A stretch of 42,163 nucleotides of DNA from a virus (Duplodnaviria > Heunggongvirae > Uroviricota > Caudoviricetes), in IMG/VR virus record IMGVR_UViG_2728369608_000007. One strand, given 5' to 3'. Position numbers and translations under genes: made by a program. Shown here piece by piece: positions 5,837-37,071 of this stretch (position 1 is the first letter of the stretch; each line of letters begins with the position of its first letter). The notes under the pieces are model-generated. The model did no database searches. It worked only from the letters and a program-made list of their open reading frames with translations, and was not told the origin of the DNA.

Positions 5837-6189
5837 TACGCCTCCGATGTAACAGTCGTTATTCCATAAAGAGTGTCGATTTCAGCGGAAAACATGACAC
5901 GTCGGGTCGTGGTATCCAGCGTCGTATTGAAAGAGAGGATTGATTTAACGCCCTGCGTTTCGAGGATGCGCTTACGGATCGCCAGGTTGTAGGTTTCCGG
6001 CTTCTGCTTACCGAGTACGGACTGGATCCACGGAGTCCCCTCGGTGGTGTCGAGAAACCATTGCCCATACCACAATTCGAATCGCGTTTTTACCGCCTGC
6101 GCCACGGCCTCCGGTGAGTTAATCAGCCAGGTGTCATCACCGCTGCCAAAGGTGTAATCGCCATCGGCGTCTTCACGTCTGTATCGCAT
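5836..6189 (-). CDS. baseplate wedge protein (W/gp25-like position)
   Basis: 117-aa ORF translationally coupled between the V-like and J-like genes. Confidence 0.55.
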   Translation of the reverse strand: MRYRREDADGDYTFGSGDDTWLINSPEAVAQAVKTRFELWYGQWFLDTTEGTPWIQSVLGKQKPETYNLAIRKRILETQGVKSILSFNTTLDTTTRRVMFSAEIDTLYGITTVTSEA

Positions 6190-16080: not shown

Positions 16081-16121
16081 CGGGTCATCCTTAATGGCCC
16101 CGCCAGGGGGCCATGTGGCTG

Positions 16122-19593: not shown

Positions 19594-20911
19594 TCTCGAT
19601 GTCCTCGTCGGTAATGGATGCCCCGATGCCGGTTACGTCAGAATTTTCTCGCAAATCAGTCATAGCGGCTTTCAGTGTCATCAGACCATCACCCAGCGCT
19701 GTACTGATTGCGTTGGTAGTGTTTAACGCCACCGTTGAGCGATCGACATCAGACATTTGCCAGAGCGGGTTAAACTCAAACGTGAAATCGTCCGGCAGCG
19801 GCTTGCCAAGTTCCGAACGATGCATGATGTCCAGTATCCGCCGCACCGGAAGACGTAAACGCCTCTCCTGCAACGAGCTTACCCGGTCGTAATAGTTGGC
19901 AAGGTCTGCATCGCCGGTAGAAAATCCCTTCGGGGACTGTCCGAACAACCGCACCAGTGGGATACCAACAGCGCCACTAATCTGTTCTGCAAACTGTGAA
20001 AGGATGTCATCCAGACCACTGAAGCTGTACTGATGGGTTTCAAACTTATCCCGCGAGTCCATGAGAGTCATGCCTTCATTGCTCTGGAACTGTCGAATCA
20101 GGTCAATATTCTTCAGCAACGCTTCATACGCAGGACCACCAAGTGCGATAAGCTCGCGTAGCTTCTCCACGCTGTAGGTACGCAAATGCGCTTTGTAGAC
20201 CAGCTGCGCCGCGCCGACAGTAGCGCTGTCGAACGCGGTAAGACGATCCCAGATACGCTCTACAACCGACATTCCCCATTCGTTCTCGGTCATCTTCTGC
20301 TGAAATGGCAGCGTGACGCCATCAAAGCGAATCAGTCGACTGTGATGAATGCGCCAGGCAGGAATTCCCGTTGCTGTGGTCACCACATCGTAAAACTCAG
20401 GTTTACCCAGGTCCGGCCCCATATCTTTAATGCGGCGGGTCAGTACCGGGTCAATCATCCAGCGGTCGAGCGGGAGAATTCCCTTAAACTTGCCCTTACC
20501 GATGGTTTCGGGTCGCAGCGGGGTCATTGGTGCCTGCCCCTCAATCATGATGAAACCCACCGCGCCGCCGTAGAGGCGCGACCATTTCAGCACGTCATTC
20601 AGCGCATCCCAGATTTGCAACTCATCCAGTTGTGATTCGAGAATGCCACGATCTTTTGCATCAATTTCCGAAGTGATGCGAATGCCTTTGCGGGTCATAT
20701 CATCCGGGATAGCATCGACTGCTTCGCCGATGATCCAGGACGAACGATAGGACCATTCCACCAGCATGCGGTTACGACTGGTGAAATTAGCCCGGTAGGT
20801 GGATGCTGAGTGCTGGTTAGGTGTCTGCATCCCTACGCGGGCAATAAAATTCTCATAACCATCAGCTGTGGCCTGCGCAGTTCGCCGCAGGGCTTGTTTG
20901 TTTCGTGCCAT
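19445..20911 (-). CDS. portal protein
   Basis: 488-aa protein directly downstream of large terminase; acidic C-terminus. Confidence 0.8.
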   Translation of the reverse strand: MARNKQALRRTAQATADGYENFIARVGMQTPNQHSASTYRANFTSRNRMLVEWSYRSSWIIGEAVDAIPDDMTRKGIRITSEIDAKDRGILESQLDELQIWDALNDVLKWSRLYGGAVGFIMIEGQAPMTPLRPETIGKGKFKGILPLDRWMIDPVLTRRIKDMGPDLGKPEFYDVVTTATGIPAWRIHHSRLIRFDGVTLPFQQKMTENEWGMSVVERIWDRLTAFDSATVGAAQLVYKAHLRTYSVEKLRELIALGGPAYEALLKNIDLIRQFQSNEGMTLMDSRDKFETHQYSFSGLDDILSQFAEQISGAVGIPLVRLFGQSPKGFSTGDADLANYYDRVSSLQERRLRLPVRRILDIMHRSELGKPLPDDFTFEFNPLWQMSDVDRSTVALNTTNAISTALGDGLMTLKAAMTDLRENSDVTGIGASITDEDIENAEDEAPPGIGEPDDEPQEPSGGNPVSNQPTQDSAGGRGHRKWSLRWFK

Positions 20912-29509: not shown

Positions 29510-29742
29510 AATACCAGCTCTTTAACAAACTGAACCGCGTGACAGGTAAGCCGCAGTACTCCTGGCAAAATGAAATGGCACCCGATGGGATCGAGGTAAG
29601 CGCCGAGTCCGTATGCGTACGGTAAGCGTAGAGGACAACACCGCGACGAACTGATAAGTCACGCAAGTTGAAACGCCCCGACGATGGGGCGCTTAGTTCC
29701 TTTAACTCTGGGTGGCCGGAAGGGTACCCATGCTTAAAGAAA

Positions 29743-32904: not shown

Positions 32905-33453
32905 ATGAAACTGAAGCTGAACAATGTTCGTCTGGCCTTCCCGTCTCTGTTTGAAGCTAAAACTGTAAACGGCGAAGGCGATCCGCGTTTCTCCGCAGTA
33001 TTTTTAATGTCTCCCAAACACCCACAACTGGAAGAAATCCGTAAAGCTATGAAGCAGGTAGCGAAGGAAAAATGGGGAGAGAAGTGGGAGCCCATTTATA
33101 ACCAGCTGGAGAAAAAACTCAATCTGTGCCTGCATGATGGTGATGAAAAAGCAGAGTATGAAGGCTTCCCCGGCAATTTCTTCCTGAATGCTGCTAACAA
33201 AGCGCGCCCAGCTGTTCTTGATCGCGATCGTTCGCCACTTATTCAGGCTGACGGACGTCCTTATGCAGGGTGCTATGTAAACGCCGTTATCGATATCTGG
33301 GCACAGGACAATAATTTCGGTAAACGCATTAATGCCTCACTCGGCGGAGTCCAGTTCCTGCGAGACGGCGATGCATTCGCTGGCGGCGGAGTGGCAAGCG
33401 CTGACGATTTCGACGATATCAGCGAAGGTGCTGATGCTGAAGCACTAATTTAA
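32905..33453 (+). CDS. ssDNA-binding protein, DUF2815-like
   Basis: 182-aa protein with acidic C-terminal tail (DDFDDI), in the canonical position after the DUF2800-like nuclease. Confidence 0.7.
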   Translation: MKLKLNNVRLAFPSLFEAKTVNGEGDPRFSAVFLMSPKHPQLEEIRKAMKQVAKEKWGEKWEPIYNQLEKKLNLCLHDGDEKAEYEGFPGNFFLNAANKARPAVLDRDRSPLIQADGRPYAGCYVNAVIDIWAQDNNFGKRINASLGGVQFLRDGDAFAGGGVASADDFDDISEGADAEALI

Positions 33454-33505
33454 CCCTACTTCATAGACGCCCGGTTAAACACCGGGCTACTGATTAGGCG
33501 TATAA

Positions 33506-34135
33506 TCACTCAGGAATCTTAATCTTTCTCAATTCTTTATTTAGTTCACAGATCTTTTTCTTAGACGGGAAAGTATCATACATCCAAAAACCAACAGTCT
33601 CTAAAACTATTATCATAACCATATACACAAGATAATTTAAAAGGCCTTCATTTTGCCCTATGGAAATAATGCAGATAATAGAAAAAAGGGTAAACAGCAC
33701 AAAACACAGAAAGGAAAACAGACGACTAATAATAAATAAAAAACCTGAAAAATCAACATTAATAAAAAACACTCCGTTATCTTTCTCTATATAATTCTGA
33801 AGCTTAATCAACTGATTTATATACTGTCTTTTTTCTAATCTATTGCAAATGTAAATAACATCTCTTCGGTTATAAGAGGATTGCAATTTCAGCGCATCAC
33901 GAATAATTTTATCATTTATTCTTTTTTCTATGGCTTTCTTATCCTCCTTATCCAGATAACGTTCATACTTAATTAAATATAAAATTAACTTCTTGACATA
34001 TTTAGGCTCTTTATACTTATAATTAAAAATGATCTTTCTTATCCAGACTCCCATAACAATCAAACATGAAAAAATATATCCAGCTATTTTCTCCAGATGC
34101 TCTGTATGGTCAATCAAGTATTGGATCATATGCAT
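33506..34135 (-). CDS. hypothetical membrane protein (moron, antisense to the replication operon)
   Basis: 209-aa ORF in very AT-rich DNA; hydrophobic segments at N-terminus and in the C-terminal third; K/E/Y-rich middle. Confidence 0.65.
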   Translation of the reverse strand: MHMIQYLIDHTEHLEKIAGYIFSCLIVMGVWIRKIIFNYKYKEPKYVKKLILYLIKYERYLDKEDKKAIEKRINDKIIRDALKLQSSYNRRDVIYICNRLEKRQYINQLIKLQNYIEKDNGVFFINVDFSGFLFIISRLFSFLCFVLFTLFSIICIISIGQNEGLLNYLVYMVMIIVLETVGFWMYDTFPSKKKICELNKELRKIKIPE

Positions 34136-34181
34136 AATTAATCTTTTAATCAGTTAATAGAATAAAAACCTAGGTAAACAC

Positions 34182-36245
34182 ATGTCCAATATACTATGGG
34201 GCGACCTGGAAACCTATTGCGAAATCCCTATTACGAACGGTACCCATGCGTATGCCGAAGGCGTTGAAGTGATGCTTTTCGCATGGGCTATCAACGACGG
34301 GCCAGTAAACGTGTGGGATATCACTGCCGGTGGTGGTATTCCACACGGCTTATACGAAGCAATCGCAGACCCTGAAACCCTGCTTTATTTCCATAACTCT
34401 CACTTCGACCGCACCGTTCTGCGTTATGCAATGCCGCGACTGGCACCGCCAGTCGAACGTTGGCGCGACACGATGGTGCAGGCGCTGGCGCACGGTCTCC
34501 CGGGGTCTCTGGGGGAACTCTGCGAAGTACTAGGCGTCCCGCAAGACAAAGCGAAGGACAAAGAAGGTAAAGCGCTGATCCAGCTGTTCTGTAAGCCACG
34601 TCCGAAAAACAGCAAACTGCGTCGGGCCACCAGTAAAACCCATCCGGAAGAATGGCGGCGCTTTGTTGCTTACGCCGGACTGGATATCGAAGCAATGCGT
34701 GAAGTCTATAAACGTCTGCCGAAGTGGAATTATCAGGGGACAGAGCTGGCGCTCTGGCATCGTGATCAGCAGATCAACGACCGGGGCGTCTGCATGGACA
34801 TGCAACTCGCGCGCGCTGCGATCGAAGCGGTAGACCAGGAGCAAAAGCGCCTGGCAAAGCGTACACAGGAAATGACTGATGGCGAAGTGCAGGCAGCCAC
34901 ACAACGGGACGCGTTGATTAAGCACATCGTTGAATCCTACGGTGTGGAGCTACCAGACATGCAACGCAGTACCCTGGAACGTCGTATGGCCGACCCCGAT
35001 TTATCATCTGCCGTGAAAGAACTGCTGGCTATCCGCCTGCAAGCCAGTACTACCAGCACCAGTAAATACAAGGCACTGATGAAAGGCGTAAGCCACGACG
35101 GGCGCTTACGCGGTACGCTACAGTTCTGCGGGGCGTCACGTACCGGTCGTTGGGCCGGACGGCTATTCCAGCCCCAGAACCTTCCCCGCCCTTCACTAAA
35201 ACAGGAACAAATAGACGAAGGCATCGAAGCACTGAAAGCCGGATGTGCAGACCTGCTGTTTGACAATATCATGGAACTAACCAGTTCAGCGTTACGTGGC
35301 TGCATTATCGCGCCAACAGGCAAAAAACTAGTGGTAAGTGACTTGTCAAACATTGAAGGCCGTATGCTGGCATGGCTGGCGGGAGAAGAATGGAAACTGA
35401 ATGCATTCAGAGAGTATGACGCTGGAACGGGTCCGGACTTATATAAACTGGCGTATGCAAAAGCTTTCGATATTGCACCAGATGATGTTGATAAACACAT
35501 GCGTCAGATCGGTAAAGTCATGGAACTCGGTCTGGGTTATGGAGGTGGTGTATCGGCTTTCATCACTTTTGCTCTGGTTTACGGTCTCGATCTCGACGAG
35601 CTGGCGAACGCCGCACTGCCAAACATTCCCCGCGATGTTATCCGCGAGGCAAAAAGCTGGTACGACGAATCGGTTAAGCGTAAGTCGACCTTTGGCCTGT
35701 CCGAGCGTGTATTCATCGCATGTGACTCGCTCAAGCGCCTGTGGCGCAGGGCGCACCCGGCGACCTGCGATTTCTGGTACGAGCTGGAGCGCACTGTCCG
35801 CACAGCAATCGCCACACCGCAAAAAACATTGTATTGCGGCTATCTTAAAATCCGACGTGATGGCGCGTGGCTGCGCATACAGCTACCATCCGGACGCGCT
35901 GTATGCTACCCGTCTCCGGTTATCGAACAAGGGAATATCACCTACATGGGTGTTAACTCTTATTCGCGTAAATGGCAACGACTCAAAACCTACGGCGGAA
36001 AGCTGGTGGAGAACGTCACCCAGGCGGCCGCCCGCGACGTTCTAGCCAGAAACATGCCGCTGATCGAGGGTGCCGGTTACAGCATTGTGCTAACGGTACA
36101 CGACGAGGTGATCACCGAAGCACCAGACACAGAAGATTTCAACGATAAAGCGCTTTCCGCGCTTCTCTCCACTAACCCCGAATGGGCACCCGATATTCCG
36201 CTGAACGCTGGCGGCTTTGAGGCGTACCACTACAAAAAAGATTGA
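34182..36245 (+). CDS. DNA polymerase, family A, with 3'-5' exonuclease domain
   Basis: Exo motif GDLETY; polymerase motifs DLSNIEGR (A), K...LGLGYG (B), VHDE (C). Confidence 0.9.
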
Positions 36246-36309: not shown

Positions 36310-37071
36310 ATGCAGGAACTAACTGAAATGCCGATCAACTATCCATACCCGAGAGAATCTTTTCCTGACTTTTTGAGGGAGTGTGGGTTCACCAATTTTT
36401 CCCACGAACAGCGTGAGACTTATGACTGCTATCGTTTAACGAATGGCGTAATTGTTAACCTTTACACCACCCGGACCATTCAGTTTCAAGGGAACCCTCA
36501 AGAACGTCCCAATGTTGAAACTGCAATAATGTCCCATTTAGGAACGCCCCCCACGGCAACACCACTAGCCGTAGAACAGCCATCTGAGCTTCCCAAAAAG
36601 ATATTCATTGTTCACGGCCATGACCATACTGCAAAGGAACAACTTGAGCTAATCCTTCATAAACTTGGATTACCAGACCATTTCATTTTGCAGAATACGG
36701 GAGGGACTGGACTCACCATTATTGAAGAGCTTGAACGTGAAATTGGGCAAGGACAAACTGCTACTCGTTTCGGGATTGTTCTTTTGACACCTGATGATAT
36801 GGGATACTCAAAGCGCGCCGGTGAAGCAGAAATCCAACCCCGCGCAAGACAGAACGTTGTACTCGAGATGGGTATGCTTCTTTCGTCCTTAGGGCGCAGC
36901 AATGTAGCAATCCTTCAGAAACAGCACCTAGAACAGCCTTCTGATGCTAACGGGATTTTGTATCTGAATTTCAACGACCATGTACGTGAAACAGTTCCTC
37001 GTCTAGTGCAACGGTTACAAAATTCTGGTTTCGAATTTACACAAGCTCAAATAGCTAACGCTTCCTCGTAA
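36310..37071 (+). CDS. hypothetical protein with C-terminal TIR-like/SLOG-type domain
   Basis: KIFIVHGHD ... FGIVLLTPDD ... ARQNVVLEMGMLL matches the TIR-like nucleotide-binding domain signature (conserved Glu in NVxxExG); N-terminal about 100 aa unknown. Confidence 0.7.
   Translation: MQELTEMPINYPYPRESFPDFLRECGFTNFSHEQRETYDCYRLTNGVIVNLYTTRTIQFQGNPQERPNVETAIMSHLGTPPTATPLAVEQPSELPKKIFIVHGHDHTAKEQLELILHKLGLPDHFILQNTGGTGLTIIEELEREIGQGQTATRFGIVLLTPDDMGYSKRAGEAEIQPRARQNVVLEMGMLLSSLGRSNVAILQKQHLEQPSDANGILYLNFNDHVRETVPRLVQRLQNSGFEFTQAQIANASS

Follow-up and report, generated by a model that had tools for sequence, protein, structure and literature searches.

The window analysed here, a stretch of 42,163 nt from a tailed virus (Caudoviricetes; IMG/VR record IMGVR_UViG_2728369608_000007), carries at 33506-34135 on the minus strand a gene for a 209-aa protein that is predicted to span the inner membrane three times, and that lies antisense within a replication operon. 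We conclude that this is an autonomous accessory ("moron") cargo gene of a temperate Escherichia coli phage, and that the gap in which it sits, between the DUF2815 and DNA polymerase genes, is a cassette-exchange slot. By sequence comparison the protein belongs to a rare, uncharacterised membrane-protein superfamily that is undescribed as far as we found. We suggest, at a probability of about 0.42, that the protein has an anti-phage role in the inner membrane, with a SieA-like block of genome delivery as the most likely mode; the reading with the best support is an anti-phage role of either kind, by blocked entry or by abortive infection, and we would give it something near even odds. The support for an anti-phage role, which the sequence-only reading had proposed as superinfection exclusion or abortive infection, comes from context, namely slot variability, neighbourhoods, base composition, retention of the gene after prophage decay and architectural analogy, rather than from homology or experiment. 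The gene and its surroundings are as follows.

33506-34135, minus strand: orphan membrane-protein gene, 209 aa, ATG start, phrog_10579, predicted three-transmembrane (TM) inner-membrane protein
32905-33453, plus strand: gene for a DUF2815/Enc34 single-stranded DNA (ssDNA)-binding protein, flanking the membrane-protein gene on one side; its Klebsiella counterpart matches PF10991 (Enc34 ssDNA-binding)
34182-36245, plus strand: family A DNA polymerase gene, flanking it on the other side
33488-34181: exchangeable cassette; homology to the other slot variants ends at the DUF2815 stop codon/hairpin and returns at the polymerase ATG

To describe the slot, we used a query spanning both flanks of the gene, which matched 159 genomes; the middle part was present in 67 of these. 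With flanks that are 96-100% identical, the slot was found in five states:

67 genomes: the 209-aa antisense membrane gene
13 genomes: a 199-aa antisense gene
27 genomes: an Nmad5 gene and a 229-aa soluble antisense gene
32 genomes: an Nmad5 gene and an 89-aa antisense gene with two TM segments
at least 5 genomes: a co-directional BRO-N gene

The sequence-only reading had raised the question of whether related prophages hold a different gene at this position, and the four alternative states show that they do. The breakpoints fall exactly at gene boundaries, the DUF2815 stop codon and the polymerase ATG. Given that homology resumes only at the polymerase ATG, each cassette supplies its own ribosome-binding site for the polymerase gene. 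This replacement polymorphism at a fixed junction in near-identical genomes is the pattern expected of a moron or hotspot locus. We found no description, in the literature searched, of a slot within the DUF2800-DUF2815-PolA replication operon. The antisense genes of the two Nmad5 states (229 aa and 89 aa; L003 2306-3630 and L004 2306-3281) have no Pfam or PADLOC match. Strain VL7S7 has an HNH endonuclease gene in the gap that separates DUF2800 from DUF2815 in the same operon (L005 1705-2220), which makes that gap a further insertion point in the replication module.

That the 209-aa open reading frame (ORF) is a gene, and that its composition is foreign, follows from several observations. The sequence-only reading had described an ORF opposite to the surrounding operon and far more AT-rich than its neighbours. 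Both descriptions were borne out: the ORF call places it on the minus strand with plus-strand neighbours on both sides, and its G+C (GC) content is 29%, compared with ~50% in the flanks. Sliding GC is 0.26-0.33 over 33450-34199 and 0.46-0.56 on either side; at 0.287, against 0.49-0.51 for the host element, the gene deviates clearly in base composition. ORF statistics, GC and hydropathy together support an antisense membrane-protein gene of foreign composition. Stop codons are common in AT-rich DNA, and none of 2000 Markov-1 simulations of the 687-bp cassette gave 209 stop-free codons (maximum 143). The ORF might still be a spurious one in an AT-rich spacer, since it is annotated as hypothetical only and its upstream Shine-Dalgarno sequence is weak. 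However, that explanation is refuted by conservation and retains next to no probability: besides the simulations, full-length homologues were found at 17-44% identity with the same predicted architecture, and ratios of nonsynonymous to synonymous substitution (dN/dS) are well below 1. We conclude that 33506-34135 is a genuine gene. Its start carries ATG-CAT-ATG, such that Met1 and Met3 are both candidate start codons. The phrog_10579 profile begins at M28, which would make a protein of 182 aa; alignments with homologues reach back to residues 1-3 and take in TM1, and we therefore prefer the longer start. Judged by these alignments, database entries that start at Met28 are probably truncated.

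In a comparison over 1.8 kb, the window showed 100% identity with Escherichia phage vB_EcoM-606R2 and with two siblings of that phage. The phage is temperate and of myovirus type; it has a Q antiterminator and a lysis cassette as well as a cI/cro switch. The 728-bp region around the gene occurs in 67 of 5,426 complete E. coli genomes, once in each and always on the chromosome, at 95-100% identity; carriers include IAI1, O103:H2 12009, O55:H7 CB9615 and the enterotoxigenic E. coli (ETEC) strain H10407. A tblastn search of the phage collection returned the three near-identical phages only, and the plasmid collection held no match for one relative (P0004). An Rfam scan of the window found nothing, and neither did a literature search by accession, phage name or PDC-S47. 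In H10407 the DNA polymerase gene is frameshifted and the membrane gene intact (L019 4483-6557). Elsewhere in this phage, the deposited annotation ON470579 3983-5733 (window ~1419-1733 plus neighbours) has a DNA invertase gene adjoining oppositely oriented tail-fibre and tail-fibre-assembly genes, which suggests an invertible host-range segment.

Database searches placed the protein in a small and little-known group. It matches phrog_10579, a PHROG of unknown function, over aa 28-209 (profile 1-182 of 182; E 7e-107, 356 bits). For 15 members of the family, Pfam gave nothing better than E 0.0048, all unrelated DUFs, and NCBIfam gave matches far below cut-off only. No SieB, RexB, Imm or Abi family model in Pfam or NCBIfam matched. 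The best hit of a sequence-profile search of the PDB had E 0.94, and Foldseek against the PDB and BFVD returned nothing below E 0.5, with generic helical bundles at most. A holin identity was rejected, as the sole match was to phrog_2508 at E 0.37 and the holin, endolysin and Rz genes of the phage are located elsewhere. A word-indexed search of 5.8 billion proteins found near-identical sequences only, and an exhaustive HMMER search of 1.84 billion representatives gave 10 matches, with full-length relatives at 26-43% identity; a profile search added the Xenorhabdus proteins. Overall, full-length relatives of the 209-aa protein are 23-44% identical, and the superfamily amounts to only ~20 protein clusters among billions of proteins. 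With PADLOC, 15 of 16 members scanned had no match; only P0010, from Xenorhabdus, weakly matched PDC-S47 (E 4.2e-4, 17.9 bits, aa 18-94, ~30% of the profile), which we take as a lead only.

The alignments define two conserved stretches, YL.KY..YLS..DK.YIK..I..EIM in the soluble region (alignments A1-A3) and P....I..IN.EL.K.K in the tail; the invariant residues are L54, N199 and L202. The 199-aa protein from the alternative slot state aligned as a single sequence with the family profile at an hhalign probability of 96.5%, and the 199-aa subfamily profile did so at 98.1% (E 9e-14, 190 columns, 17% identity). These profile comparisons indicate that the 209-aa and 199-aa proteins are distant homologues within one superfamily, alternating in the same slot of near-identical phages.

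Relatives of the gene occur in a range of mobile or defence-rich contexts:

P2-like prophages, several loci: between gpS and gpV
Lambdoid prophage (L014 888-7743): directly upstream of Q
Antisense between PAPS-reductase and RecT genes
Near TraG_N (TraG-bearing element)
Near integrase and Tlde1-domain genes
Xenorhabdus region with Tn3, HicA and Tad2-like genes
Serratia integrase island: adjoining PtuA/PtuB-like genes (Septu / PDC-M01) and a type I restriction-modification S subunit gene
Klebsiella aerogenes: the same DUF2815-polymerase slot (199-aa clade)
Enterobacter: edge of a CP4-57-like island

The gpS-gpV position of P2, the orf30 slot, belongs to a set of three P2 regions known for horizontally acquired genes (PMC3091744). 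GC of the relatives is 0.28-0.34 (one 0.40) irrespective of host GC, and in eight other contexts the relatives likewise deviate in composition from the element that carries them. Just upstream of the lambdoid copy lies a dense defence-type cluster comprising a GAPS4-type PDDEXK gene, a cytosine methylase gene with HNH, and an HD-domain (dGTPase-like) gene. No conserved partner gene was found across the 13 neighbourhoods of relatives examined, and a candidate partner was discarded, since the 363-aa proteins encoded next to it in L009 and L024 proved unrelated. We conclude that the relatives are single-gene cargo of horizontal-transfer or defence-rich places.

Three ectopic copies retain traces of their origin. 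In an Enterobacter genome (L042, 6920-7671) and a metagenome contig (L044, 6860-7859), the 199-aa gene is intact, and the flanking phage genes survive only as remnants, 55-141 nt from the 5′ end of the polymerase gene and 45-259 nt from the 3′ end of the DUF2815 gene. The Serratia copy (L024), 44% identical in protein sequence, still has a 40-nt piece of the polymerase 5′ end (5930-5969; 82.5% identity). These decayed remnants indicate that the ectopic copies derive from this prophage slot, with the gene kept and the phage lost. A gene that outlives its phage points to a benefit at the level of the cell, or to an addictive property, rather than to a role in phage replication.

Purifying selection on the members persists even where the prophage around them has decayed. 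Sequence comparison indicates that the relatives are under purifying selection (dN/dS 0.07-0.16): values are 0.11-0.16 in the 199-aa clade and 0.07-0.11 among three Xenorhabdus species. Close E. coli alleles, with few substitutions, gave 0.27-0.42, and IAI1 pairs, with no more than six differences, gave 1.19. In Xenorhabdus indica, X. innexi and X. budapestensis (L007 8001-8639; L047 and L048 4001-4639), a syntenic chromosomal copy of ~30% GC lies between an SLT gene and thrS-infC; given its synteny, composition and dN/dS, it looks like a domesticated copy. This raises the alternative that the protein serves the host in a manner unrelated to phages, as a factor of lysogenic conversion that confers immunity to a bacteriocin, type VI secretion system or contact-dependent inhibition toxin, or that acts in the envelope or in stress. 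Vertical inheritance upstream of thrS in three species under strong constraint, survival of the intact gene after prophage decay, and the one relative near a Tlde1-domain gene are all consistent with such a function. Immunity genes of pore-forming colicins are likewise small, encode several TM segments and are antisense. However, no toxin gene adjoins the gene in the other contexts examined, its large basic cytoplasmic domain is unlike the known small immunity proteins, and its co-location with phage-defence genes is recurrent. The Xenorhabdus fixation and the absence of a defence-database match keep a non-phage membrane function alive, although we regard it as unlikely.

The protein model was built with AlphaFold (AF2) from a 15-sequence alignment (predicted local distance difference test, pLDDT, 75; predicted TM-score, pTM, 0.55); a single-sequence AF2 model, at pLDDT 53, was too poor and was not used. 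The model has helices at 2-40, 132-161 and 165-188, a terminal helix at 192-202, and a beta-hairpin at 116-125 in the helical soluble domain. Hydropathy, the positive-inside rule and AF2 gave a three-TM layout, with the following parts.

34025-34087, minus strand: predicted TM1, codons 17-37, moderately hydrophobic (Kyte-Doolittle, AF2 helix 11-40, charge distribution of 15 members), preceded by a net-acidic N-terminal tail that is predicted to be periplasmic
33758-34024, minus strand: basic helical soluble domain with a small beta-hairpin, codons 38-126, +22/-12, predicted to be cytoplasmic (alignments, positive-inside rule, AF2)
33575-33757, minus strand: predicted TM2-TM3 helical hairpin, codons 127-187, with a 7-residue periplasmic turn (hydropathy, AF2, charge)
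33509-33574, minus strand: basic tail, codons 188-209, predicted to be cytoplasmic and holding the most conserved motif of the family (invariant or near-invariant columns in alignments A2, A3 and A4)

The sequence-only reading had noted hydrophobic segments at the N-terminus and in the C-terminal third, which correspond to ~aa 14-37 and aa 122-186, and a Lys/Glu/Tyr-rich middle. The Lys and Tyr of the latter description stand and the Glu does not: aa 38-126 contain 17% K, 11% Y, 13.5% I and 9% N, and with E at only 6.7% and a net charge of +10, "Lys/Tyr-rich and basic" describes the region better. All 15 members have the same charge layout, with an acidic N-terminal tail (+1/-3), a basic 89-aa loop, a neutral or acidic TM2-TM3 turn and a basic C-terminal tail. 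This layout points to a three-TM topology with the N-terminus out, the C-terminus in and the soluble mass in the cytoplasm. The predicted order is thus a periplasmic N-terminus, TM1, an 89-aa cytoplasmic domain, the TM2-TM3 hairpin and a cytoplasmic tail; because the hydrophobicity of TM1 is only moderate, the protein may instead have a two-TM hairpin and an amphipathic N-terminal helix. Conserved residues of the tail are P190, I195, N199, E201, L202 and K204 ("LNKELRK").

The same architecture bears on whether the protein might be an abortive-infection effector, in which the cytoplasmic domain would sense a phage product, and TM2-TM3 with its buried Glu would oligomerise and depolarise the membrane, such that the cell is killed before phages are released. 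The bulk of the soluble part (89 aa and the 22-aa tail) is predicted to be cytoplasmic, an acidic TM3 residue, the membrane-embedded E179 of the TM2-TM3 hairpin, is conserved in the 209-aa clade, and a single autonomous gene in defence-rich contexts would suit such an effector. However, members of the 199-aa clade have Cys or another residue in place of E179, and the searches linked the protein to none of RexB, SieB, Abi or the PADLOC effectors. We consider this mode improbable, to about the same degree as a function unrelated to phages.

We aligned the upstream regions of eight copies of the gene, three ectopic copies among them (alignment A6). Only one block, AGTATATT, is invariant in all eight; it lies within the 5′ codons of the polymerase gene. 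There are two candidate promoters:

34188-34195, minus strand: invariant AGTATATT block at 34195-34188, inside polymerase codons 3-5, putative -10 element (alignment A6)
34159-34188, minus strand: alternative candidate promoter TGGACA-18-TATTCT, 9/12 matches, from a consensus scan and specific to the window

The candidate -10 hexamer within AGTATATT is TATATT (34193-34188, minus strand, polymerase codons 3-4). In intact phages, conservation of AGTATATT could reflect polymerase coding; in the three ectopic copies it cannot. By a rough estimate, the chance that the 8-mer would be conserved in all three ectopic copies at their flank identity is ~1%. As for the signals of an independent transcription unit, then, AGTATATT is kept in the ectopic copies, the -35 element is weak, and no intrinsic terminator was found. 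The 229-aa and 89-aa antisense genes have the same upstream sequence from the polymerase 5′ end as the 209-aa gene, and may therefore use the same embedded candidate promoter.

In all four antisense slot variants the candidate promoter overlaps the polymerase start codon. This overlap, together with the supply of the polymerase ribosome-binding site by the cassette, could mean that the cassette mainly serves the phage, with antisense transcription or a roadblock tuning polymerase expression and the protein being secondary. We think this quite improbable, considerably more so than either of the two alternatives above, since the protein sequence is under purifying selection, the protein is conserved where there is no polymerase gene (P2 slot, chromosomal islands, Xenorhabdus), and the BRO-N variants manage without an antisense gene.

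The hairpin GCCCGG-N7-CCGGGC that the sequence-only reading had placed between the convergent genes is present:

33469-33487: GC-rich hairpin GCCCGG-N7-CCGGGC, a backbone element common to the BRO-N slot variant

Its folding energy is -16.7 kcal/mol on the plus strand and -19.2 kcal/mol on the minus strand (z ~ -3), and the window contains 4 perfect all-GC 6-bp stems, compared with 1.3 expected. Neither strand has a T/U-run after the hairpin, and a terminator scan scored no site. In the BRO-N variant the same hairpin is followed by TGTTTTTG, the T-run of which makes it a normal terminator there; in the window, the cassette joint replaces the T-run. A terminator role for the window hairpin was therefore rejected, since both strands lack a T-run. 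Given that it is shared only with the BRO-N variant and that its T-run is replaced, the hairpin is a backbone relic rather than an expression signal of the gene. The other three all-GC 6-bp stem-loops of the window (16096-16112, 20561-20580 and 29674-29691) are presumably operon terminators or punctuation.

A second variable slot lies directly after the polymerase gene. Its content is a TIR-like gene in IAI1 as in the window, and elsewhere ANR and DUF4406 genes (H10407, O103, KOr019) or a YfbU gene (DEC5B). The product of the window gene, at 36310-37071 on the plus strand, is a TIR protein of CAP12/Pycsar type (PF10137, E 3e-31); its whole length is covered by a match to PDC-S35, a PADLOC candidate (E 1e-108). 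The presence of this defence candidate in the second slot counts in favour of the anti-phage reading. A link between the membrane gene and the TIR-like gene was considered and dropped: the cassettes assort independently, and H10407, O103, KOr019 and DEC5B lack the TIR gene.

Taken together, the data are consistent with a model in which the gene would be transcribed in the lysogen from its own promoter, with the -10 element TATATT inside the first polymerase codons and facing the repressed early operon; transcription would start at ~34180-34186 on the minus strand. Convergent transcription of the early operon would damp the antisense promoter during lytic growth. The protein, in the inner membrane, would guard the lysogen against other phages, probably by SieA-type interference with the passage of the genome across the cytoplasmic membrane; infection-triggered membrane damage, that is, abortive infection, would be a close second.

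Several observations weigh against this model. Neither Pfam, NCBIfam nor the PDB gave a relative of the protein, the fold searches gave none either, and the window protein has 0 matches in PADLOC-DB v2.0.0. Profile comparison by hhalign (alignment A2) gave a probability of 0.2% with P22 SieA (type A) and 0.5% with SieA of E. coli HS1 (type B), and a further comparison gave 0.2% with SieB, for which there was no Pfam match either; lacking SieA homology by profile, the protein is one that may work like SieA, not a member of its family. The -35 element of the predicted embedded promoter is poor (TAGGTT) and the consensus promoter scan was not enriched (5 sites, compared with 3.3 expected), so we regard the embedded promoter as hypothetical. 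The copies in P2-like prophages run in the same direction as the late genes, which means that lysogen-specific expression is no rule of the family. The O55:H7 DEC5B allele has a nonsense codon at K63 (L023 3807-4436), indicating that the gene is dispensable. Finally, the vertical, syntenic and strongly constrained Xenorhabdus copies are less typical of fast-turnover defence genes, and a general membrane function fits them equally well.

A more ambitious form of the SieA-like proposal is doubtful, although we rate it slightly above each of the alternatives discussed above. The protein would be the founding member of a new SieA-like superfamily of single-gene exclusion systems, situated in an undescribed replication-operon defence hotspot, where a fixed promoter in the polymerase codons would drive swappable lysogen cargo and would be off on induction; the 209-aa and 199-aa alleles would then differ in specificity. 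If the protein does exclude phages, it would be a sequence-unrelated addition to the few characterised inner-membrane exclusion proteins, and would bear on prophage-mediated resistance in pathogenic E. coli carriers (O103:H2, O55:H7, ETEC H10407 and sequence type ST38). The locus would also represent a compact natural design, in which a promoter inside the 5′ codons of an essential gene drives swappable antisense cargo. Because two alleles that have diverged so far occur in backbones that are otherwise the same, a comparison of specificity is ready-made. Should there be no effect on phages, retention after decay and fixation in Xenorhabdus would still mark a membrane function under selection.

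The kind of element is familiar; for the family, the slot and the arrangement with an embedded promoter we found no earlier description. The closest analogue is P22 SieA, a superinfection-exclusion protein of 162-164 aa in the inner membrane, for which three TM helices are predicted. Its TM1 is followed by a charged loop, and the conserved motif at its cytoplasmic C-terminus reads FxRYPxEAxxFNK, then EFIK; its types A, B and C are ~25% identical at one locus (PMC10883804). The sieA gene has a GC of 0.34, compared with 0.46 for the P22 locus, and is antisense to the ejection-protein genes with its own promoter. By prediction, the window protein has the same architecture: an inner-membrane protein in the size range of ~160-210 aa, with three TM segments, charged residues in the loop that comes after TM1, and, behind the TM2-TM3 pair, a short basic tail in the cytoplasm that bears the best-conserved motif. 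The tail motifs YPGEANGFNKEFIK (FNKEFIK) of SieA and FPSKKKICELNKELRK (LNKELRK) of the window protein look similar, both genes are AT-rich and antisense to the flanking operon, and both families have diverged types at one locus (~25% identity for SieA; 17% here). However, the window protein has a cytoplasmic loop of 89 aa rather than ~45 aa, its gene is in a replication operon and not beside ejection-protein genes, and its family has members outside phages as well.

SieB of Lambda and P22, which acts in exclusion of the abortive-infection type, is a second point of comparison, with ~190 aa, an N-terminal hydrophobic anchor, and a gene that lies antisense in the early operon with its own promoter (P22 annotation); it has one long hydrophobic stretch, whereas the window protein is predicted to have a 1+2 TM layout. 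At the level of the locus, the slot resembles the hotspots of temperate phages, such as orf30, Z/fun and tin-old of P2, in which foreign alternative genes occupy a fixed junction of near-identical backbones (PMC3091744, PMC9122126). The window slot differs in being inside a replication operon, in that its cargo is mostly antisense, and in a candidate promoter that is apparently common to the variants and lies in polymerase codons. The P2 orf30 slot itself holds one clade of the window family.

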